From a phage, in the sequence record PX063913.1: 44,574 bases of DNA. One strand, given 5' to 3'. This document shows positions 1 through 10,382 of this stretch, in pieces. Positions within the stretch are counted from its first letter, which is position 1; each line of letters starts with the position of its first letter. The notes below the pieces were generated by a model. The model saw nothing but the letters and a program-made list of their open reading frames with translations. It made no database searches and was not told where the DNA came from. The position numbers and the translations under genes were made by a program.

Positions 1-1707
1 ATGGCAGCGGGTACACTATCCGTAACGAATAACAGCAAGGCGGTTGTCGGGGTAGGCACGACGTTTACCGCGTTTAAAGCAGGCGACTTCTTATCGCTGG
101 TAGTGGGGCAAGTTCCTTACACTGTTGCGATCTCGTCCGTAGAAAGCGACACCGCGCTTACGCTTGTGCTGCCGTTCGACGGACCAACGGCAACTGGCCT
201 CGCGTGGGATGGCGTTAAGCGCGATACCATGTCGCTGGCAACGATGGGCGTAACCGTCCAGGCCCAGAAAGCGTTGCGCTTGATGCTCGCGGACGAAAAT
301 AACTGGCGCGCAATCTTCGGAGACGAGGAAGAAATCGCGGTAACGCTGCCGAACGGGCAAGTTATGCAGGGTATGTCATGGGGCTATCTGTCGCAATTGC
401 TGAAGGAAGTTGACCCTGTTGAGATGCGCAACCTGCAACAACAAGCCGCCGCATCTGAAGCCGCCGCGCTGGTATCGCGTAATGAAGCAGAAGGCTTCAA
501 GAACGACGCCAATACCATCAAGACGCAGACCGACCAAATCAAGGCCGATACGCAGGCGATCCACGACGCCACCAACACCATCAAGACGCAGACGGATCAG
601 ATTAAGGCGGATACGCAGGCCATCAAGGACCAGACGAACCAGATTAAGACTGAAACCGGCGTTATTCGCGACGAAGCTAATACGGCGAAGACTGACGCGC
701 AGGCCGCCAGCGCTGCCGCGCAGGGATTTCGCGATCAGGCCGAAGAATGGGCACAAAGCGTAAACGCCGATAATCTGCTAACCAAATCCAGCAACCTGGC
801 GGGGCTAACTGATAAATCGGAGGCGCGCTCTAATCTTGATTTGGGGTCTGTTGCCACTGAAAACACCGTCCCTATCGAAAAAGGCGGCACTGCGGCAACA
901 ACGGCAGCGGAGGCGCGCTCTAATTTCGGGTTGGGGTCTGTTGCCACGGAAAACACCGTTCCGATCGAGAAAGGGGGAACCGCCGCGACGACGGTAGCCG
1001 CTGCGCGCACTAATTTCGGGTTGGGCGATAACAATAACGTAAAACTTGGCACGTTGCGCCTAAACGGTGGTGAATCGCTAGTCTTCAATGATGTCGAGCG
1101 TAACGGTTTGATTATATCCAACGCGTCTTTCGGGATTGATAGCTGGGTTGGGCAGACGATGCATAAGTGGTACACGGATTGGACGCGCGCGGGCCTAGTA
1201 AGGGCCGGGGATACCCACTTATCAGACTACCGCGTCCATGTGTGGAAGGACGGCTTTACTGAGTCGCTATTCCGATTCCTACCGGACGGCAGGCTTATTA
1301 GTGGTAACAGCGTCAACCCGTCGGTTAACGAGTTCCAGAAAGCGCCGCTATCAGACCGCGACCTTAAAAAAGAAATCAAATACACGGACGGCGAGGAAAG
1401 TTACAACCGAGTTCGACAATGGCTTCCGGCGATGTTCAAGTATAAGGAGTCGGACGTACAGCGATACGGCCTTATCGCGCAGGACCTGGCACGGATTGAC
1501 CCGGAATACGTGCATTTGCTGCCGGGTTACGCCATTTATGAGGACGTCAAGGGGGTGGACGAGGAAGGGAACGAGGTTGTAGTAGATCGGAAGGAGATCG
1601 GGTATACCGACGATGTGCTGTCTTTGGATAGTAACGTGCTGTTGATGGATCTGTGTGCCGCCTTCGTCCACCTGTTGCATAAAGTGGAGAAGCTGGAAGG
1701 TAAATAA
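1..1707 (+). CDS. Tail fibre protein with C-terminal intramolecular chaperone (peptidase S74-like) domain
   Basis: ATG at nt 1, 568 aa. Two in-frame tandem repeat blocks: nt 511-690 (20-aa units NTIKTQTDQIKADTQAI) and nt 820-1027 (28-aa units RSNxxLGSVATENTVPIEKGGTAATT). C-terminal SDRDLKKEIKYTDG...YGLIAQDL resembles the autoproteolytic chaperone motif of phage fibres and endosialidases. Terminator follows. Confidence 0.7.
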   Translation: MAAGTLSVTNNSKAVVGVGTTFTAFKAGDFLSLVVGQVPYTVAISSVESDTALTLVLPFDGPTATGLAWDGVKRDTMSLATMGVTVQAQKALRLMLADENNWRAIFGDEEEIAVTLPNGQVMQGMSWGYLSQLLKEVDPVEMRNLQQQAAASEAAALVSRNEAEGFKNDANTIKTQTDQIKADTQAIHDATNTIKTQTDQIKADTQAIKDQTNQIKTETGVIRDEANTAKTDAQAASAAAQGFRDQAEEWAQSVNADNLLTKSSNLAGLTDKSEARSNLDLGSVATENTVPIEKGGTAATTAAEARSNFGLGSVATENTVPIEKGGTAATTVAAARTNFGLGDNNNVKLGTLRLNGGESLVFNDVERNGLIISNASFGIDSWVGQTMHKWYTDWTRAGLVRAGDTHLSDYRVHVWKDGFTESLFRFLPDGRLISGNSVNPSVNEFQKAPLSDRDLKKEIKYTDGEESYNRVRQWLPAMFKYKESDVQRYGLIAQDLARIDPEYVHLLPGYAIYEDVKGVDEEGNEVVVDRKEIGYTDDVLSLDSNVLLMDLCAAFVHLLHKVEKLEGK

Positions 1708-1713
1708 GGAGAA

Positions 1714-1735
1714 GGGGCCGCACGGCCCCTTTTTT
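1714..1735. terminator. Rho-independent terminator between convergent genes
   Basis: GGGGCC-gcac-GGCCCC hairpin followed by T6; lies between the fibre stop (1707) and the stop of the minus-strand gene (1734). Confidence 0.7.
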
Positions 1736-2309
1736 AGTTTGAGTTCTCCCAGTCCATTTTGCGCCGCACCAGCGGGCTTTCGTAGTATTCCTTACCATCC
1801 ACTTCCACCAGGGGCCAGTCGTTCACTATCACGTATGGCTCCGCAATATCTTCAATAACGCCGTGCGCGCTATGTTGTCCGAACGATACGCCCACCAGGA
1901 TAACACCGGCAACGCGACGGGTAAGGTATTCGCGAGCGCAACGTGCCTCAACCAGTCCGCGACGGATGCCGCTGGTAGCTTTGACCTCGTATGTCCATAC
2001 GGCATCGATCGTATGTTCGCGGAAGTCGGGGCCGGACTTAACCTTGCGCTTGCCGACCATGATAATATCGCCGCGGTCGATAGTGTTAGCGCTAAACAGG
2101 CCGGTGCGCATTAGCAAACCTTGCGGGATACAGCTACGCCCACCCGCCTGCCCTTCGAGGTACATTCCTGCAAACATTTCGCCCAGCACACCGACGAGTC
2201 TGCTTTGCTTGCACGCGTCAGACTTGTATCGCCACTGTTCAAACTCGATGCTTGCAATCATTGCCGCCAGGTGGAATTGTTTACCGGTTATTTCGTATTC
2301 GCCGTACAT
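1734..2309 (-). CDS. Hypothetical protein
   Basis: 191-aa ORF, ATG at 2309 preceded by GGAGG at 8 nt spacing. A weak D...EVK pattern could be a PD-(D/E)xK nuclease core but is not convincing. Confidence 0.5.
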   Translation of the reverse strand: MYGEYEITGKQFHLAAMIASIEFEQWRYKSDACKQSRLVGVLGEMFAGMYLEGQAGGRSCIPQGLLMRTGLFSANTIDRGDIIMVGKRKVKSGPDFREHTIDAVWTYEVKATSGIRRGLVEARCAREYLTRRVAGVILVGVSFGQHSAHGVIEDIAEPYVIVNDWPLVEVDGKEYYESPLVRRKMDWENSN

Positions 2310-2351
2310 CGTGTGGCCCTCCTTGATGCGGGCCGAAGCCCGCGATTAGAA

Positions 2352-2906
2352 TTATTTAAGTGCACCAGTCACTAGTGTTTTTTCCATGTTGCGGAAATCT
2401 TCCGGCGTCATGAGGATTTTAGATCCGTCTTCACCAGTGAGCACGACCATAGGCTGGACGTCCTGGGCTTCAACTCCAAAATCGCGGGCCTTAACCGTCT
2501 TGCCGAACGAGGCTACCGTGTCCTCTGCAACGCGAATTGCGCTGTTATACGCATTAATCTCGCCGTCCAGGAGCACGGACAGACCTTTGAGGCTGTCGAA
2601 TTGTGCTGCCGTTGTATCGATCTGAATCTCGTCATGCACGGTCATGTAAGACTCGCCCAGCAGGGCGGCATACGCCACCAGGTCCACGATGTTATCTTCC
2701 TGGTGCTTACGGTGCTGGCGCACCAGCTTCAGGCAGATCAGGAAGGTCCAGGCTTCTTGCTCGGTAAGGTCGCGACCGGTAAGCGCGTTAAACACGGCAG
2801 CAATTTGTTTAGCGCTGCGTTCTTCTTTCGCGTTGTCATAGCCGTTTTCTTTCCCGCGCTGTTCCATAGTGGTGGCGGCGTTTTTGCAGTATTCGAATGC
2901 TTTCAC
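2352..2906 (-). CDS. Conserved phage protein, possible all-alpha NTP pyrophosphohydrolase-like
   Basis: 184-aa ORF with GTG start at 2906 after AAGGG. Motif IAAVFNALTGRDLTEQEAWTFLICLKLVRQ...DNIVDLVAYAAL resembles conserved phage MazG-like or DUF-type proteins; assignment from memory of family motifs only. Confidence 0.4.
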   Translation of the reverse strand: MKAFEYCKNAATTMEQRGKENGYDNAKEERSAKQIAAVFNALTGRDLTEQEAWTFLICLKLVRQHRKHQEDNIVDLVAYAALLGESYMTVHDEIQIDTTAAQFDSLKGLSVLLDGEINAYNSAIRVAEDTVASFGKTVKARDFGVEAQDVQPMVVLTGEDGSKILMTPEDFRNMEKTLVTGALK

Positions 2907-2969
2907 AGTATTACCCTTTTAGTGAGGGGGCGGTATTGCCCCCGACACGTGTACTATAGTGCAACCAAC

Positions 2970-3440
2970 CTATTGGTTGCAAGTGAATTTTGCGACGTTT
3001 ATTGCGTAAATTTTCGGGACCAAATCACCACACGCCCGACGAATTGCCGCGATGTTCTTCTCGCAATCTTCAATGATGACCAGTTCAGACACGTCCGCGT
3101 AGCAGACCATTTTGAACACGGCGCACGCCTTAAACTCTGGCGGCGGGGTGTCGTCCAGCATGTGGCGCATAAACAACCTGCCTACCGGGAAGACCTCCAA
3201 TTGCTCGGCGGTGGTTTCCCAGCATTCTCGCTGCCGGTTTGTCAGATACGCGATCTCGAAGCCTTGCTCTTTATACATGCGCAGTAGCGGCAGCATATCC
3301 ATGTTAATGTCTTCGCGGACGTGCGCCTTGTGCCACTTCGCCCAGAAGGTGGATTTAGTTTTTATTCCCGGCACCAGGTCGGCACGCGCATCACTTGAAC
3401 CGTTAATAACGCCATCCAGATCACAAATCAGTAGTTTCAT
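2970..3440 (-). CDS. HAD-superfamily phosphatase
   Basis: N-terminal LICDLDGV is the canonical HAD motif I (DxDG[TV]); 156 aa, ATG at 3440. Confidence 0.65.
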   Translation of the reverse strand: MKLLICDLDGVINGSSDARADLVPGIKTKSTFWAKWHKAHVREDINMDMLPLLRMYKEQGFEIAYLTNRQRECWETTAEQLEVFPVGRLFMRHMLDDTPPPEFKACAVFKMVCYADVSELVIIEDCEKNIAAIRRACGDLVPKIYAINVAKFTCNQ

Positions 3441-3661
3441 TTTAAGCTCTCAATAAGGGTGTAACGGGCGCTTCGCGCGGTAAAGGAGTTGCACACGAAA
3501 TGGCAACGCTGAGTCATGACAAGCCAACCGGTGAGGTCAAGGCCCAAGATGTATTCGGGACGAGACGCGCGCACCACACGATTGCGTCGCGGGTCTATGC
3601 AGTAGTCTTTTTGCATTTGGTCTACGACCGCAGGGTCGCGATCAACGATTAAGATATTCAC
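3437..3661 (-). CDS. Hypothetical small protein
   Basis: 74-aa ORF, GTG start at 3661 preceded by AGGAG; overlaps the Dam gene 3' end by 20 nt. Confidence 0.4.
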   Translation of the reverse strand: MNILIVDRDPAVVDQMQKDYCIDPRRNRVVRASRPEYILGLDLTGWLVMTQRCHFVCNSFTARSARYTLIESLK

Positions 3662-4127
3662 GTAGTTCTCCTTCGCTCATTATTTCAATTTGTGCGCTGC
3701 CGCTGGGCGGCGCTTCGTCAAAGATTATCAACTGCTGGCACTTGTTATTGCTCGGCCCGACTTCACCGGTTACAGCGTGTATAAATCGGATACGCCAGTC
3801 CAGAAGAATTATCAGGTTTGCAGTCTTCCGGGCCAACCGCGCCCACTTCGTCGACGTGTCCTGATTCAGTAGCATGACGGTCCGACGTCCATGCGCCGCA
3901 CACTCGACCCACGGCAGCGGATCGGAATACGGCGGGTTGCACCACTTCCACCCTTTCAACTCTGACCAGTCCACATCGAGCGCGCTGTGCTCCGCCGTGA
4001 AGTAACGCGGTAGCAGATGGTTGGCGTCGCTTGCCGCCATGTCATAACGGAATCGGTACTTCCGGCGCAGCGGTTTAAATAAAGCTGGCGGCGTGCGCCA
4101 GCTATCTTTTTGCTCACTCTTCTGCAT
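3642..4127 (-). CDS. DNA N6-adenine methyltransferase (phage Dam-like)
   Basis: WRTPPALF...FRYDMAASDANH...WCNPPYSD matches the phage N6-MTase family including the catalytic NPPY motif. Confidence 0.8.
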   Translation of the reverse strand: MQKSEQKDSWRTPPALFKPLRRKYRFRYDMAASDANHLLPRYFTAEHSALDVDWSELKGWKWCNPPYSDPLPWVECAAHGRRTVMLLNQDTSTKWARLARKTANLIILLDWRIRFIHAVTGEVGPSNNKCQQLIIFDEAPPSGSAQIEIMSEGELREYLNR

Positions 4128-4572
4128 GATCTGGATCTATCGCGTACAGGGCAATTTTCTTATTACTGTTTAGAACGCGTTGCACGCGCTTTGATTCCTC
4201 GGTGCCGAGCGGTCGGCAGTCGGAGTAGTAAGACCCGTTCCCTCGCCACGCAACCAGCACCAGGTCTTTCCGGCCAATCTTAGACGTGCGGCCCTTCGGA
4301 CGCACGTACTCCTCGGCCCGTTTGCAATGCTCACGCAGCCCGTCGGCAGTGATGCGGTTTAGTGCAACGCTGGTGGTGTATCCGGTGCGCTGCATAATCC
4401 CCATCAATTCGAATAGCAGTTCGAAGCGCTCCTCTAACTCCATGCGACGCTTTTCTTCCGTTTCATAGCTTGACAGGTAGGTATCTGCCAGCGCGCTGAC
4501 GCGTTCTGCCTGCTCGCGGGCTTCGAGGCATTGCGCGGCCCAGTAGTTTTTCTCTTCTTGTAAAATTTTCAT
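4114..4572 (-). CDS. Hypothetical protein
   Basis: 152-aa ORF, ATG at 4572 with GGAGA upstream; no recognisable motifs. Confidence 0.5.
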   Translation of the reverse strand: MKILQEEKNYWAAQCLEAREQAERVSALADTYLSSYETEEKRRMELEERFELLFELMGIMQRTGYTTSVALNRITADGLREHCKRAEEYVRPKGRTSKIGRKDLVLVAWRGNGSYYSDCRPLGTEESKRVQRVLNSNKKIALYAIDPDHAEE

Positions 4573-4815
4573 TTATTTAATCTCCGTTGTGCGAATCTCA
4601 TTGCGTGGGATAAATTTGCCGTCCATCTCCACCCAGCAGACTCCGTATCGCCATTGGGTGTTACGGCCTGTTTGCTCGGCATACACGGTCTTGCATTCGT
4701 AGCGTTCCGTGTAGTAAATAGCCGTCGAAGGTATGCCAATACAACCGGCAATCATGAGGGTGAGTAGCACCCAAAATCGAAGGTCGCCGTCGTAGTCGAA
4801 AAATAATGATTTCAT
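4573..4815 (-). CDS. Small membrane protein
   Basis: Start moved to the internal ATG at 4815 (MKSLFF...), preceded by GGAGACAGTGAG; one hydrophobic helix WVLLTLMIAGCIGI. Confidence 0.5.
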   Translation of the reverse strand: MKSLFFDYDGDLRFWVLLTLMIAGCIGIPSTAIYYTERYECKTVYAEQTGRNTQWRYGVCWVEMDGKFIPRNEIRTTEIK

Positions 4816-4834
4816 CTCACTGTCTCCAGGTATT

Positions 4835-4859
4835 AAAAAGGGCGTCCAACCGGACACCC
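4835..4859 (-). terminator. Rho-independent terminator-like hairpin (minus strand)
   Basis: On the minus strand GGGTGTCC-ggtt-GGACGCCC followed by T5, between the HNH gene and the small membrane gene. Confidence 0.5.
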
Positions 4860-4895
4860 TCAATATAATGCAACCAATATGCTTATGCAACCAAT

Positions 4896-5219
4896 TTACG
4901 CATAAAAATTTGGGTCGCGCGCTACGTCTACCAGATACAGGTTACTAATGCGGTTGCCGTAATGGCCTGGCGTGCGCTGGCGGCACACAACGGCATAGCC
5001 TGGAGGGATTGTATTGCCAGTCTCAATAATCCACGCCACGCGTGCGCCAGACAGCGTCTTGCCGTTGCATTCGATACGAGTACCGCCATCGGCAGTATTG
5101 AGGTTGCCAATCTTGCAGCCGGTGGACTTTAGGCGGATAACGCCTGTTTTGCTGTCGTAGGAAAAAAGCTGATTGGTCATTGCCACTGAAAAATCGATGG
5201 CTTCGAATGTAGTGTTCAT
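4896..5219 (-). CDS. HNH homing-endonuclease-like protein
   Basis: LFSYDSKTGVIRLK...CNGKTLSGARVAWIIETG...NRISNLYLV resembles HNH_3 family endonucleases; active-site residues may be degenerate. Confidence 0.55.
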   Translation of the reverse strand: MNTTFEAIDFSVAMTNQLFSYDSKTGVIRLKSTGCKIGNLNTADGGTRIECNGKTLSGARVAWIIETGNTIPPGYAVVCRQRTPGHYGNRISNLYLVDVARDPNFYA

Positions 5220-5911
5220 TCTAAATTTTCCTCATTGACTGCGATTGCGAAGCCGCGCGGGGTGAGCGACCTGATTAATTTGGTGCGGGCGGATTTGCCT
5301 CCGAGGCGACTATACTGCTTCGAGTACCCTTTTTCAACGAAAACAGGTTTCTTCTCTGGCATACGGAAGCCGTTGCCCGTCCATAAGCAGGTCAGCTTCG
5401 GATATGAATCGCGGGCGTTGATGTATTCCGGGAATAACGGGTGCACGTCATCCTCCGGCAAATAGCCGCCATACTCCCACGGGTCAAACGAGTGGTCCGG
5501 CTTACGCCATTGAGTGGAGAGCACGCTGCGCGGATTCTCAATCATATACGGCACTTCAAAGAAATCACCCAGATAAGCGGCGATCTTCGCGGTGCGTACC
5601 GCCTTAAGCTGGAAGGCAGGGTCGCGGGCGCGTTTGCGCGGGAAAGCTGGCGCACCGCTAACCGCCAGATCCGTACACGGCGGGAATGCATAAATGATAT
5701 CCGGCGTGCCGAAATCACCATTCATCGCGCGGTCCACGAAGTCCAGATCGATAAACTCATTACGATATCGGATACCGCGCCCATAAATCCGGTAGTCCAG
5801 GTACGACCCGTGATCTGCTTCGGAGTAGTTGAAGCAGTAACACTTATGCCCCATCTCGGCAGCACGTTCAATCATCAAGCCGCTGCCGTCAAATAATGAC
5901 CAGATAATCAT
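5216..5911 (-). CDS. Short DNA cytosine-5 methyltransferase-like protein
   Basis: SLFDGSG (motif I-like), FPPCTDLAVSG (PC motif IV-like) and MIENP (ENV motif VI-like); only 231 aa with no obvious target-recognition domain. ATGA overlap with the HNH gene. Confidence 0.5.
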   Translation of the reverse strand: MIIWSLFDGSGLMIERAAEMGHKCYCFNYSEADHGSYLDYRIYGRGIRYRNEFIDLDFVDRAMNGDFGTPDIIYAFPPCTDLAVSGAPAFPRKRARDPAFQLKAVRTAKIAAYLGDFFEVPYMIENPRSVLSTQWRKPDHSFDPWEYGGYLPEDDVHPLFPEYINARDSYPKLTCLWTGNGFRMPEKKPVFVEKGYSKQYSRLGGKSARTKLIRSLTPRGFAIAVNEENLE

Positions 5912-7332
5912 TTGCGCGCCTTTTTAGCTTTCATGTATTCCATTAAATCGTCCTGAATGTCTCGCTTACTGTCGCGACGCTCCGCGACCAGTTCGTCCAG
6001 TGTGCCGCGCGCCTGGATAATGTAGACGAATACGGGACGAGGGTGTCCGGCTTGCATCTGGCGAACTGGCCCTATACGCTCCACGATCTGCGCAAAGTGC
6101 TCATAGTTCCAGGTGTCTGAGAAGATAGCAAGGTGGTGTCCGCCATCCTGCAAGTTAAGGCCGTGACCCGCCGATGCCGGGTGTGCGAACATGATGGGGA
6201 TCTCGCCCCTGTTCCATGCTTCCATATCCTTATTTCCTTGCTTACCCTTACCCATCGCGACGCCGTGCGGGAATTTCTTCTTAAGACGTGCCAGATCATG
6301 CTTATATTGGTACGCGACGAGCAACGGTGCGCCGTTCAACTCCTCCACTATACTTTCCAGCGCGTCCAGTTTAGCGTCGTGAATTTTCACCCATTCATCG
6401 GTGCGCTCGCCGTCTTCGTCGACCTTATATACGGCCCCCGAAGCAAGCTGAAGGCACTTAATGGTCTTCGACGCGGCGTTTGCCGCCTCTACAGTTCCGC
6501 TTTCCAGTTCCGCAAATAGCTCCGCTTCGAACTGGTCATAAATCTTGCGGGCTTTCTTCGGCAGGTCCACAACAACCGGCGTATAGATCGGCTTGTCACA
6601 CCCGAAGTATTCAGCCGCGTCAACTGTTAGTGACACGTCGGACAGGCGTTGTTGGATTTCTTTCTCGGAGTTCTTAAGCGGGGCGTGCTGCATAGTGAAG
6701 CTGCTAGGCTTAACAGGCTTGCTAATAAACCAGCGATCAGTGAATGCCTTATAACTACTGCCGAGGCGTTCGCCACCGTCGACAAACCACGTCTGACCCC
6801 ATAGGTCTTTCAGCCCGTTTGGTGCGGGTGTGCCTGTCAGGTTAATCCAGCGCTTGACGTGCTTATGTGCGATCGCTGCCAGCGCACGGGCGCGCTTACT
6901 TCCCTGCTTGCTTCGATAGCCTTTCAGCTTAGTCGATTCATCGGCAACCACGACCGTAAAGGGCCACTCGTCGCCGCAATACTCGACGAGCCACTCAACT
7001 ACATCATAGTTAATACAAACCACGTTGGCGTCGCTCTCAAGCGCAGCGATGCGGTCCTTCTCCGAGCCAGTACCATCTACTACCAGCAAGGCGGGGAAGC
7101 GCCATTTTTCCTGTTCCGGGGGCCATGTGCCGGATGCAACGCGCAGAGGGGCCAGCACCAGTACGCGGTCCTCCTGGTTGGACAGGATGCCGGTCTGGAA
7201 CATTTTATTCAGCGCCCACATGGTCGCGCCAGTTTTACCCGACCCCATTGTCGCCCATATATTGCATCGCTTATGCTTGAGGATGAACGCGGTTATCAAC
7301 TTCTGATATTCGCGGCGTCGGAATCGTGCCAT
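5908..7332 (-). CDS. SNF2-family DNA helicase/ATPase
   Basis: Walker A ATMGSGKTG, motif II VVVADESTK, SNF2-type LTGTPAPNG, C-terminal helicase motifs. Start placed at ATG 7332 (MARFRR...), which abuts the upstream gene; the longest ORF would start at 7422. Confidence 0.8.
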   Translation of the reverse strand: MARFRRREYQKLITAFILKHKRCNIWATMGSGKTGATMWALNKMFQTGILSNQEDRVLVLAPLRVASGTWPPEQEKWRFPALLVVDGTGSEKDRIAALESDANVVCINYDVVEWLVEYCGDEWPFTVVVADESTKLKGYRSKQGSKRARALAAIAHKHVKRWINLTGTPAPNGLKDLWGQTWFVDGGERLGSSYKAFTDRWFISKPVKPSSFTMQHAPLKNSEKEIQQRLSDVSLTVDAAEYFGCDKPIYTPVVVDLPKKARKIYDQFEAELFAELESGTVEAANAASKTIKCLQLASGAVYKVDEDGERTDEWVKIHDAKLDALESIVEELNGAPLLVAYQYKHDLARLKKKFPHGVAMGKGKQGNKDMEAWNRGEIPIMFAHPASAGHGLNLQDGGHHLAIFSDTWNYEHFAQIVERIGPVRQMQAGHPRPVFVYIIQARGTLDELVAERRDSKRDIQDDLMEYMKAKKARK

Positions 7333-7336
7333 ATCT

Positions 7337-7555
7337 TTATTCCGCCTTTTTCCAGACTTCTGTCTCACTGTTCCAGTTCCTTTTTGTGGCGTCATAGTTG
7401 GTGCTGTGCCCGATGTGTACACCCGTCGCCCGAAAGCTCTTAAATTTTTGCCAGCACACCGTCAACGGCAGCGGGTAATTCATGCCCGCGATAAACCATA
7501 CGCGATCGCCTGGTTTGCATTCGCCCAGTGTTGTGAGTCGGTAGCGTTCTTTCAT
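7337..7555 (-). CDS. Hypothetical protein
   Basis: ORF with GGGAGAC upstream of ATG at 7555; track start at 7570 is a TTG. Confidence 0.45.
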   Translation of the reverse strand: MKERYRLTTLGECKPGDRVWFIAGMNYPLPLTVCWQKFKSFRATGVHIGHSTNYDATKRNWNSETEVWKKAE

Positions 7556-7598
7556 CGTCATGTCTCCCAAAAATGGCGGGACAAGCCCGCCGTATTAA

Positions 7599-7772
7599 TT
7601 ATGCTTGCGCGGCACGGTAGCGGCGCTGCCGTTCACGCTCTTTTTTATTTCGGCACGATTTGCACTCGGCCCGATACCCGTCTGGGCTGCGCGCCGTCTT
7701 TCCGGTGTATTTGTGGAACTGGGATAGCGGCTTAACGCAACCGCAATTACTACAACGTTTTTCTTCAATCAT
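7599..7772 (-). CDS. Small zinc-ribbon-like protein
   Basis: MIEEKRCSNCGC...AECKSCRNKK has two CxxC pairs; ATG at 7772 preceded by GAGGA. Confidence 0.45.
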   Translation of the reverse strand: MIEEKRCSNCGCVKPLSQFHKYTGKTARSPDGYRAECKSCRNKKERERQRRYRAAQA

Positions 7773-7812
7773 TTCTAAAATCCTCGATAGGGCTAACCTG
7801 CTCACTATACTG

Positions 7813-8094
7813 TTAAGCGACCAATTCAGCAACCAATAAATCACAGTCGGCTATGTTGTCGATGATGCGAACGTCCGCACCGCGGCGGGCCATTCGCTCA
7901 TGTTCTCGTACCTGGTGCGGCTTCGGTTTGCCTCCGGGGCGCTTCACTTCGACGAAAACTATCTTGCCGTTGATGATTATTATCAGGTCGGGCGCTCCTG
8001 CGCGCCCCTCCCATGCCAGTTTTCGGCAGAATCCGCCGACGGCTTTCGCCAGCTTCATAAGGTGACTTTGAATCTTGCCTTCTGGTGTCATCAT
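7813..8094 (-). CDS. VRR-NUC domain nuclease
   Basis: GAPDLIIIINGKIVFVEVKRPGG carries a PD...(E)VK core typical of VRR-NUC; ATG at 8094 overlaps the polymerase stop (ATGA). Confidence 0.7.
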   Translation of the reverse strand: MMTPEGKIQSHLMKLAKAVGGFCRKLAWEGRAGAPDLIIIINGKIVFVEVKRPGGKPKPHQVREHERMARRGADVRIIDNIADCDLLVAELVA

Positions 8095-10382
8095 TTTCTG
8101 TACCTGTACATAATGTCGCCTTCCGCGGCAAGCGGGAAGCCTTTCGCCCAAACAGGCAGGTCGCACATCAGCGCGCACAACTCCTCGGTTGTGTAGTCGT
8201 CGGTATCCGGCACTTCGGTGATCAGTTCATCGTGTACGGACAGTACGATCTCATACCCCGCAGCTTCAACGCCCGGCATGGACCATGCGAGGATATCGCG
8301 GCACAGCGCCTGCACGATGTTTTCCGTCAGTTTGCCGCCGTAGGTGTACTGGAATCCCCACTGGCGCGTCGTCTGATTCTCACCCTGATATTTAATGCGG
8401 GTGCTGGTGCGCTTCTTGCCGGTGTCTTCGTCGATCTCGGTCGTCACTGACAGCGCAATGCCTGGGTAACTCATAATACGCCCCGACGGCAACTCAATTT
8501 TCAACCACCACCCCGCGGCGTTCGGGTCGTCGCGCTCCTCGTCGAAGGTTGGGTCATGCTTCGCCTTCGTGCGGACTATCTTGAGCGCTTTCTTACCATC
8601 CGGGCGAACGTTCGCGCCAGCCCAGTACGCTTTGCCCGGATTGCGGATTGCACACAACACCGCGTCCTCAAGCTCGGCCCAAAAAGCTACCGTCTTCGGG
8701 TGAGCCTCGCGCCACATGCGTTTAATCGCATCACACGTAAGCCATACGTTTTTCGGCAGTATGTAAGTCGGACGCTCGTCCTTCTTGCCCGGCTTCGGCG
8801 GTCGCTTCGCTTCGTTAATGCGGGCGTATTCATAACCACGTTTCGCCGCCGCCCAAATGTGATCGGGGAATGTGCCCTTCATCACTTCCGCCATCGCGTA
8901 AAGGTCGAGGCCCAGATTTTTAGCGAACTGCAAGAACGCCGCCACGCCACCACCATAGCCCAGGCCCAATTCGCACGCCTTACCGATCTGGCGTAAGTCT
9001 TTGCGGTTGGCTTTAATGTATTCTGGGTCAAGGCCGAACATCTTGCCGGCAGTCTCACAATAGATATCGCGACCGGCCCTAAACACCATTAGCGCGGTTT
9101 TCTCGCCAGCGATCCAGGCAAGTCCACGCCCTTCCACGTTGGAGTAGTCCGCTACGACAAACTTCTTACCCTTCGCCGGAATAATGCACCCGCGGACAGT
9201 CGAGGCCGTTAGCTTCGATATGTCATACGCCCAGTGCGCTGTCCCACGTAACAGGGAGTTGATGCCGTTGGTGAGCATGTGCGACCGCACCCAAAAAGCG
9301 ACGTCGCTCTCGCCTTCACGGCGTTTAATCTTCCCTTCGTGGTCGTCGCTATATTCGCCGCGTGCCAGGTTTTGCGGCTGGAAGCCTTTACCGGCCCAGC
9401 GTAGCGTGCGCTTTGCGCCGCCATACTGAAGACACCCACGGCGGCGACCATCGGCGGATAGGCCATTAACGAGCGGATTGTACTTAGTCGACGCCGTGGA
9501 TGACGCACCGAGGCGCATCTCGATAAGCGCTTTGCCTTCGTCCGGGAAGTCTGGATCTTCCAGCAGGTCGTTAAGCGTGGATTTCTGCGCGTTGTGGATT
9601 GTGAACGCAGGCGCGAGGTCGCGCAGCGCGGGCAGGAAGTCATTGCCGGTTAGCTTACCGCCGAAGCGCTCCCAGGCTTCTTCCTTTAATTCTTCCTTAT
9701 GCGCCTGTACCGCTTTGATCGCAGCGCGTGCCAGGTCAACGTCCACATAGAAGCCGCGGTCGTTAATCAACTGGTCAATAAGCAGGATTTCGTCTTCCTT
9801 CGGCGTATTACCCCAGTCCGGTATGCGCCAATAGACTTCCCTCATCGCGATGATATCCAGCGCGGCATAGCGCAGGAATTTAGCCCATTCTTCAGGGTGA
9901 GTCTCGCGGGTGTAGCGGCGGATTTTGTAGGTCTTAGGGGTTGGCTTACAGAAGCGTTTGATCAGCGCCTTGCCAGCCTTATCCTTCGCGTGTTCTGCGT
10001 CAACGCCCAGCACCTGGCATTGCATGTCGAGACTACCCGGCAGCGCGTGTCGGAAGGCCATAATCATGGTGTCTTCGATCTGGCCTACCGGCAGGTCAAT
10101 GCCCCACTTCTCGCGAATAACCAGGCGGTCAAACAGGAGGCCGTTAGCCATCACGATTTTTGCTTTCTTGCGAGATACCCGGCGGAGCGCCTTGCGCAGT
10201 TCACGCGGCATTGTGGGGGACTCGGTGCAATCCCATGTCTGCACGCGGCCCTCGTCGATGGCGTAGGTGCAAATCATAATCTCGGTGGTTGGGTGCTCTG
10301 CGTAGGCGTATGCGCCAACTTTCTTCAGGTCTACCCCGCTAAATGTCTCGGTATCGAGAAACAGGCGTTCGAAGTCTTTCAT
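8091..10382 (-). CDS. DNA polymerase, family A, with 3'-5' exonuclease domain
   Basis: Exo I LFLDTETFSG, Exo III YAALDIIAM, Pol motif A VVADYSNVEGRGLA, motif B RQIGKACELGLGYGGG, motif C VLSVHDELI. Confidence 0.95.
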   Translation of the reverse strand: MKDFERLFLDTETFSGVDLKKVGAYAYAEHPTTEIMICTYAIDEGRVQTWDCTESPTMPRELRKALRRVSRKKAKIVMANGLLFDRLVIREKWGIDLPVGQIEDTMIMAFRHALPGSLDMQCQVLGVDAEHAKDKAGKALIKRFCKPTPKTYKIRRYTRETHPEEWAKFLRYAALDIIAMREVYWRIPDWGNTPKEDEILLIDQLINDRGFYVDVDLARAAIKAVQAHKEELKEEAWERFGGKLTGNDFLPALRDLAPAFTIHNAQKSTLNDLLEDPDFPDEGKALIEMRLGASSTASTKYNPLVNGLSADGRRRGCLQYGGAKRTLRWAGKGFQPQNLARGEYSDDHEGKIKRREGESDVAFWVRSHMLTNGINSLLRGTAHWAYDISKLTASTVRGCIIPAKGKKFVVADYSNVEGRGLAWIAGEKTALMVFRAGRDIYCETAGKMFGLDPEYIKANRKDLRQIGKACELGLGYGGGVAAFLQFAKNLGLDLYAMAEVMKGTFPDHIWAAAKRGYEYARINEAKRPPKPGKKDERPTYILPKNVWLTCDAIKRMWREAHPKTVAFWAELEDAVLCAIRNPGKAYWAGANVRPDGKKALKIVRTKAKHDPTFDEERDDPNAAGWWLKIELPSGRIMSYPGIALSVTTEIDEDTGKKRTSTRIKYQGENQTTRQWGFQYTYGGKLTENIVQALCRDILAWSMPGVEAAGYEIVLSVHDELITEVPDTDDYTTEELCALMCDLPVWAKGFPLAAEGDIMYRYRK

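Follow-up and report, generated by a model that had tools for sequence, protein, structure and literature searches.

We analysed a group of genes for methyltransferase-like proteins in a stretch of phage DNA of 44,574 bp (sequence record PX063913.1), the whole of which is hereafter referred to as the window. Three genes are at issue: a short gene for a Dcm-like C5-cytosine DNA methyltransferase (the short Dcm), a gene for a 107-amino-acid (107-aa) protein related to HNH endonucleases, and a gene for a Dam-family N6-adenine DNA methyltransferase. A preliminary description of the sequence had reported them as a cluster in which the two methyltransferase genes flank the endonuclease; the three open reading frames (ORFs) were found at the positions it gave, all on the minus strand (Table 1), but "flanking" is loose, since two small ORFs (4573-4815 and 4114-4572) intervene before Dam. 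The region belongs to a Dhillonvirus early/replication operon that runs leftward, and the results make it very probable that this operon carries two independent orphan methyltransferases, with the 107-aa HNH-like protein standing outside the methylation chemistry and not being an active homing endonuclease. Across positions 3000-8000 the nucleotide identity of the window is 94% with Escherichia phage SSL-2009a and 90-94% with about 150 other Dhillonvirus genomes; coverage of this segment reaches at least 80% in 148 phage records. The total length is in line with the genus, and the source phage is an ordinary Dhillonvirus coliphage. The gene order is identical to that of the BASEL phage Oekolampad, in which a DNA helicase is followed by a Dcm-like C5 cytosine methyltransferase, a putative homing endonuclease, two hypothetical proteins, a Dam-like N6-adenine methyltransferase, a hypothetical protein and a putative phosphatase. 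The genes are already known: the same three are annotated alike in more than 100 deposited Dhillonvirus genomes, and experimental characterisation is available for a close family member of the short Dcm.

The short Dcm matched no model of NCBIfam, PADLOC or Pfam, PF00145 included (E <= 0.1); a few of its close homologues carry a precomputed PF00145 match. A profile search, the check that the preliminary description had proposed, nevertheless placed it in a methyltransferase family (PHROG 757 "DNA methyltransferase", E 2e-82), with 2880 homologues in the protein collection. The family occurs in 1512 phage records, 1376 of them covering at least 80% of the query, and its carriers include Dhillonvirus, Drexlerviridae, Vequintavirinae, Salmonella phage PVPSE1 and Escherichia phage Phi1 (genomes of ~146 and 164 kb). 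That the curated Pfam and NCBIfam models fail to pick up a family so widespread (>1500 phage records), so that automatic annotation often leaves its members hypothetical, is mildly new. The C5 motifs I, IV and VI noted earlier were upheld in an alignment of 35 homologues: in motif I (F7-D-G9-S10-G11) the residues F7, G9, S10 and G11 are invariant, as are motif IV (P77-P78-C79, with the catalytic Cys) and motif VI (E125-N126-P127). Also invariant are W135-R136 and K172, and, in a basic C-terminal block (LGGKS.RTK.IRSLTPRG), the residues LGGK..TK.IRSLTPRG; between W135-R136 and LTPRG lie only ~75 conserved residues (139-215). The ratio of nonsynonymous to synonymous substitution rates (dN/dS), computed for the three genes against four Dhillonvirus genomes and never above 0.09, was 0.013-0.063 for the short Dcm.

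An AlphaFold model of the short Dcm was confident (predicted local distance difference test, pLDDT, 90.6; predicted template modelling score, pTM, 0.89), and a Foldseek comparison with the PDB put the DNMT3A/3B catalytic domains on top (E 4e-7, probability 1.00). A PDB sequence search with the protein alone gave nothing useful, and one with the family profile returned only M.HaeIII, over motifs I-IV (E 0.55). The modelled fold and catalytic apparatus are those of a C5 DNA methyltransferase. With the classical bacterial enzymes of PF00145 (M.HhaI, M.HaeIII, E. coli Dcm/M.EcoRII) the protein shares the Rossmann-type fold, motifs I (FxGxG), IV (PC) and VI (ENV-like) and their order, whereas it is ~100 residues shorter and has a short conserved segment where those enzymes carry a large variable recognition domain between motifs VIII and IX. 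In the model, this recognition region resembles the DNMT3 type more than the large bacterial type. The small recognition region is a likeness to the DNMT3A/DNMT3B catalytic domain (e.g., PDB 6u8p, 8tdr) that is not evidence of shared specificity; identity is only 13-16%, and the phage protein lacks the regulatory domains.

Experimental evidence for the family comes from phage K42, a KarlJaspers strain of the Drexlerviridae, from which escape mutants of retron Ec86 were isolated, all with a disrupted 711-bp dcm gene (bioRxiv 10.1101/2023.08.16.553469). Expressed alone from pBAD, K42 Dcm was toxic only with the retron present and raised 5-methylcytosine (5mC) on the multicopy single-stranded DNA (msDNA) of Ec86, as measured by LC-MS (liquid chromatography with mass spectrometry); a C82A/E128A/K175A/K176A variant produced neither the toxicity nor the 5mC rise, and defence was lost once the msDNA had been mutated at its CCTGG site (bioRxiv 10.1101/2023.08.16.553469). 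A later citing paper treats this result as established. The link to the window runs through the Drexlerviridae phage aaroes, whose Dcm (236 aa) is 97.5% identical to KarlJaspers Dcm and aligns end to end with the short Dcm (231 vs 236 aa; 54% identity, E 4e-86), its C82, E128 and K175 falling on C79, E125 and K172. The KarlJaspers (Bas06)/K42 enzyme, the trigger of retron Ec86 (Eco1), has the same family and architecture as the short Dcm, with the catalytic Cys, the motif VI Glu and a Lys175 equivalent, and its gene lies, as in Dhillonvirus, near an SNF2-type helicase gene in the early region. It differs in 46% of residues and in gene order, the Drexlerviridae having no HNH-like neighbour, and activity was shown for the K42 copy. 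Because a K42-type homologue, aligned via aaroes, is active alone, we prefer a minimal, self-sufficient methyltransferase to a partner-dependent enzyme or a repurposed fold; these were the three options that the preliminary description had offered for the short protein, and the first fits best.

For the Dam-family gene, the earlier assignment to a Dam-like N6-adenine methyltransferase holds. The ORF matches Pfam PF05869 over its full length (E 2.8e-35; 121.9 bits, gathering cut-off 28.1) and PHROG 111 "DNA methyltransferase" (E 1e-55), carries the catalytic NPPY as N64-P65-P66-Y67, and matches the orphan-methyltransferase models of PADLOC. Against NCBIfam TIGR01712 it scored 86.4 bits, under the equivalog cut-off of 97.05, and a PDB sequence search with the protein returned nothing. 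Relatives were found in 1749 phage records, including, outside Dhillonvirus, the Dam of Haemophilus phage HP2 (35% identity) and the Dam genes of Stx-converting phages (~37%); dN/dS was 0.024-0.069. With the phage Dam family (PF05869/TIGR01712; HP1/HP2, Stx-phage and T1 Dam) it thus shares the full-length match, the NPPY and the small single domain; it is set apart by being only 35-37% identical to Dam of HP2 and of the Stx phages and by its sub-threshold equivalog score. These results indicate a stand-alone phage Dam-family N6-adenine methyltransferase. Characterised members of this family are specific for GATC.

On this reading, Dam and the short Dcm would each work unaided on the DNA of the phage and, incidentally, on that of the host, with S-adenosylmethionine (SAM) as methyl donor. 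Dam would transfer the methyl group to adenine N6, probably at GATC as in the characterised family members. In the short Dcm, Cys79 would attack C6 of a flipped-out cytosine while Glu125 protonates N3 and the FDGSG loop binds SAM; the ~75-residue conserved segment and the basic C-terminal segment would replace the large recognition domain in contacting DNA, much as in DNMT3A/3B, and the product of this complete, self-sufficient enzyme would be 5mC, probably at CCWGG-type sites. The two enzymes may keep the fast-replicating phage DNA fully methylated, so that progeny are shielded from GATC- and CCWGG-type restriction in new hosts, at the possible cost of detection by methylation-sensing defences such as retron Eco1/Ec86. 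In the BASEL study, resistance to restriction among small siphoviruses did not simply follow the presence of methyltransferase genes, and Dhillonvirus proved comparatively restriction-sensitive; any methylation-based protection would therefore be narrow. Gene identities, motifs, fold, homology, synteny and selection were computed here and the formation of 5mC by the lone enzyme comes from the literature on the 54%-identical homologue, while we infer which sites are recognised, the protection from restriction and what the HNH-like protein does.

Several observations weigh against two self-sufficient enzymes with these sites. The failure of Pfam and NCBIfam to recognise the short Dcm is one, and K176 of the K42 enzyme, changed in the inactive variant, is Leu173 in the Dhillonvirus copy. 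Two features of gene arrangement allow for a functional tie between Dcm and the HNH-like gene: the Dcm stop and the HNH-like start overlap in an ATGA (the helicase stop and the Dcm start do so too), and in Edwardsiella phage eiAU-183, where the helicase is followed by the HNH-like homologue, then by a PF00145 methyltransferase of full length (330 aa) and by Dam, that homologue is the gene directly upstream of a C5 methyltransferase. Genome counts of CCWGG (157 vs 161 expected) and GATC (184 vs 171-211 expected) show no informative bias, and the literature searched holds no methylome or restriction-digest data for this phage or any Dhillonvirus. E. coli MG1655 is dcm+. The K42 retron work was done in this strain (bioRxiv 10.1101/2023.08.16.553469), yet host Dcm did not trigger the retron, which implies that the site or substrate preference of the phage enzyme may differ from CCWGG. 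CCWGG specificity was itself assumed in that study from the name "Dcm" and three msDNA site mutants (bioRxiv 10.1101/2023.08.16.553469), and the recognition site of the short Dcm family has never been measured directly, though a family member triggers a retron defence. It is conceivable, if unlikely, that the short Dcm family forms a DNMT3-like dimer with a site unlike CCWGG and, separately, that the 107-aa protein has been exapted as a non-nuclease accessory of the SNF2 helicase/Dcm module, serving the targeting or regulation of methylation or replication restart, or as a decoy. A dimer with such a site could explain why retron Eco1 is fired by the phage enzyme and not by host Dcm.

In the site-frequency test of the window (CCWGG, GATC and other palindromes), no avoidance or enrichment indicating a specificity was detected. 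By mononucleotide expectation, GCGC was ~1.8-fold over-represented (459 vs 250), and GGCC (175 vs 250), GGWCC (71 vs 113) and GANTC (120 vs 171) were under-represented; this excess and these deficits mostly vanish against a Markov model.

We further examined the 107-aa protein, which matches PHROG 99 "HNH endonuclease" (E 1.3e-16). Its match to Pfam HNH_3 (PF13392) stays below threshold (13.7 bits vs gathering 24.8) and spans profile positions 5-21 only, ending just before the Asp-His. A word-indexed search with the protein yielded five clusters only; the canonical HNH_3 relatives were reached by an exhaustive search of 1.8 billion representatives, which gave 15 related proteins. Pfam HNH_3 scored above threshold in 7 of the 10 relatives scanned, and a profile built from seven canonical HNH_3 relatives matched the 107-aa protein with E 3e-16. 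In the multiple and profile alignments, the canonical "iDH...dNRieNLR....seN" stands opposite "VVCRQRTPGHYGNRISNLYLVD", and the catalytic Asp-His is replaced by Val-Cys ("iDH" against V77-V78-C79). The protein ends 13 residues past NL, before the metal-binding Asn, with the alignment stopping at profile position 94 of 111, and a Pfam scan found no AP2/NUMOD DNA-binding module in its 107 aa. Canonical relatives are longer, one of them (P0137) with an AP2 match below the Pfam cut-off. The same Cys substitution occurs in the 40%-identical homologues of eiAU-183 and in P0126. A PDB sequence search returned nothing, and an AlphaFold model built from five near-identical sequences reached a pLDDT of only 42.6. 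With HNH_3 homing endonucleases of the I-HmuI type the protein thus has in common the N-terminal "YD..TG" hairpin region, the "RVAW..TG" helix and the "NR..NL" core, whereas HNH_3 homing endonucleases with AP2/NUMOD possess an Asp-His, a C-terminal Asn and a DNA-binding tail, all three of which it lacks.

Many records label this protein an HNH homing endonuclease, and the significant HNH_3 homology, the retained NR..NL segment and a conserved His86 seven residues past the lost catalytic position would suit an active minimal enzyme. We nonetheless regard an active nuclease as very improbable, given that the general base is lost, the metal ligand is missing and no DNA-binding module is present. 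Its distribution is also unlike that of homing elements, which are sporadic: the gene is present in 158 Dhillonvirus records (>80% identity) and in the eiAU group, is fixed in the genus and linked to the helicase, and is under strong purifying selection (dN/dS 0.025-0.087 at dS 0.5-1.4). The gene is not decaying, and the protein is most readily described as a catalytically degenerate HNH_3-fold protein that has apparently been selected as a companion of the SNF2 helicase; as to its role, we would guess at DNA or protein binding in replication or recombination. Of the earlier term "HNH-like endonuclease", the homology is real but the endonuclease function is not borne out. The widespread "HNH (homing) endonuclease" label in Dhillonvirus accordingly needs caution; that it rests, genus-wide, on a domain without catalytic residues in a conserved, helicase-linked core gene is mildly new.

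Given these assignments, we compared the gene order with that of relatives outside and inside the genus. Metagenomic contig L005 lacks Dcm and has the HNH-like gene immediately after that for the helicase. A second metagenomic contig, SRR30726810_2046 (L006), from a related siphovirus, carries at 1513-4682 a helicase, a DUF7167 gene, the HNH-like gene, two small ORFs and HAD, with neither Dam nor Dcm. The HNH-like homologue of that contig (P0128) has lost both the Asp-His and the Cys and bears a C-terminal extension that looks helix-turn-helix-like by eye. In the Dhillonvirus Escherichia phage vB_EcoD_Opt212, an internal deletion leaves Dcm (3507-3707) as a 66-aa C-terminal remnant, whereas HNH-like, Dam and HAD are kept and all neighbouring genes are intact, which fits a dispensable Dcm, possibly counter-selected by methylation-sensing defences. 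Phage aaroes carries Dcm close to its helicase gene, and within 3 kb there is neither an HNH-like gene nor an annotated Dam. Since the HNH-like gene stays with the helicase where methyltransferases are absent, it travels with the SNF2 helicase, the methyltransferases being accessory inserts. These comparisons indicate that the replication module is conserved while its methyltransferase insertions vary, that the three genes do not form one modification unit, and that the HAD protein is independent of the methyltransferases.

The preliminary description had instead combined the three genes with the HAD phosphatase and a possible nucleoside triphosphate (NTP) pyrophosphohydrolase into one modification or anti-restriction unit, a view that the separation of these parts in the L006 contig, Opt212 and aaroes contradicts. 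Nor was the pyrophosphohydrolase confirmed: the 2352-2906 protein matches only DUF6378 in Pfam, and no match to a MazG-type NTP pyrophosphohydrolase was returned. That DUF6378, HAD, Dam, HNH-like and Dcm constitute a single co-evolved DNA-modification or anti-restriction island is accordingly doubtful in the extreme, even though the genes adjoin one another in a single orientation, so closely packed that stops and starts overlap, and their order is conserved genus-wide. Such conservation carries little information, as it is confined to a genus with genomes at least 90% identical; HAD and HNH-like occur without a methyltransferase on the L006 contig, Dcm occurs alone near the helicase in aaroes, and Opt212 does without Dcm. 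PADLOC gave no match for Dcm, HNH-like, HAD or the small ORFs, and no PADLOC or anti-defence family matched the island except the orphan-methyltransferase models hit by Dam. A hypermodification pathway formed by Dcm, HAD and DUF6378 was considered separately and rejected, because Pfam and PHROG searches showed no further modification enzyme in ten neighbouring ORFs and the components separate in relatives.

It is even less probable that the short Dcm depends on a partner, with DNA recognition provided by the translationally coupled 107-aa HNH-fold protein in the manner of the detached specificity subunit of split C5 methyltransferases. Such a role would account for the two features of arrangement named above, the ATGA overlap and the eiAU-183 order, as well as for the missing large recognition domain of the short Dcm and the purifying selection on an HNH-like protein that has lost its catalytic residues. 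The homologous K42 Dcm, however, was reported to be active alone in E. coli (bioRxiv 10.1101/2023.08.16.553469), the eiAU methyltransferase is a full-length PF00145 enzyme, an HNH-like homologue is absent from most of the 1512 Dcm-family phage records (it occurs only in Dhillonvirus and the eiAU group), and the HNH-like gene persists without Dcm on both metagenomic contigs and in Opt212. A repurposed C5 fold, making another cytosine adduct (e.g., carboxymethyl), acting on RNA or nucleotides, or binding DNA without catalysis, can practically be set aside, given that the LC-MS product of the 54%-identical homologue is 5mC and is lost in a mutant lacking, among others, the catalytic Cys and Glu (bioRxiv 10.1101/2023.08.16.553469), that all catalytic motifs are invariant, and that Pfam and PHROG found no CmoA-like carboxy-SAM synthase or other hypermodification gene in the ten neighbouring ORFs.

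Table 1. Predicted genes of the methyltransferase region and its neighbours (positions in the window; HMM, hidden Markov model)
Feature	Position	Strand	Basis
Short Dcm-like C5-cytosine DNA methyltransferase, 231 aa, minimal DNMT3-like target-recognition region	5216-5911	-	ORF, motifs, fold
HNH_3-related protein, 107 aa	4896-5219	-	PHROG 99, custom HMM, synteny in L002, L005, L006
Phage Dam-family N6-adenine DNA methyltransferase (orphan), 161 aa	3642-4127	-	PF05869, PHROG 111
SNF2-family helicase, same operon, directly upstream of Dcm	5908-7422	-	Pfam SNF2-rel_dom E 2.1e-11; PHROG 62 E 1.9e-157
80-aa ORF between HNH-like gene and Dam	4573-4815	-	PHROG 18961
152-aa ORF between HNH-like gene and Dam	4114-4572	-	PHROG 10530 E 3.1e-94
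HAD-family phosphatase	2970-3440	-	PHROG 415 E 3.4e-36; weak Pfam HAD matches
DUF6378 protein, 184 aa	2352-2906	-	Pfam DUF6378 E 5e-10

The surrounding operon runs leftward, densely packed, from promoter-like sites near 14.4 kb to a terminator-like hairpin at 1708-1735, and an Rfam scan of 1500-8500 found no RNA family. Of the two small ORFs between the HNH-like gene and Dam, the one nearer the HNH-like gene was called mechanically as 4573-4890 (minus strand; 105 aa, TTG start). Its PHROG 18961 match is limited to residues 26-105, and Oekolampad has a 243-nt gene at this place; translation probably begins at Met26 of the 105-aa ORF (ATG at 4815), which would leave ~80 nt non-coding after the HNH-like gene. 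The other, 4114-4572, is called "DNA ligase" by way of PHROG 10530 and in some RefSeq records. Neither Pfam nor NCBIfam nor PADLOC supports a ligase, and the Envy record comments "Possible DNA ligase but no evidence"; this is probably a mis-annotation that has been propagated. Further downstream, PDB searches gave chance-level matches only for the HAD protein and nothing for the DUF6378 protein, whose PHROG matches, 474 and 1167, carry the odd label "phosphofructokinase".

At the end of the operon, the 1708-1735 hairpin has a GC-rich stem of 12 bp flanked by T-runs on both strands and lies between the end of a tail-fibre gene (plus strand, 1707) and the end of the leftward operon's last gene (1734); it resembles a bidirectional terminator placed where two transcription units converge. 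At the other side of the region, the longest ORF of a VRR-NUC-like gene (7813-8178, minus strand; 121 aa, GTG start) extends 88 nt into the DNA polymerase gene (8091-10382, minus strand) at its 3' end. Related records give a VRR-NUC-like gene of 279 nt, so the true start probably lies downstream of this GTG.

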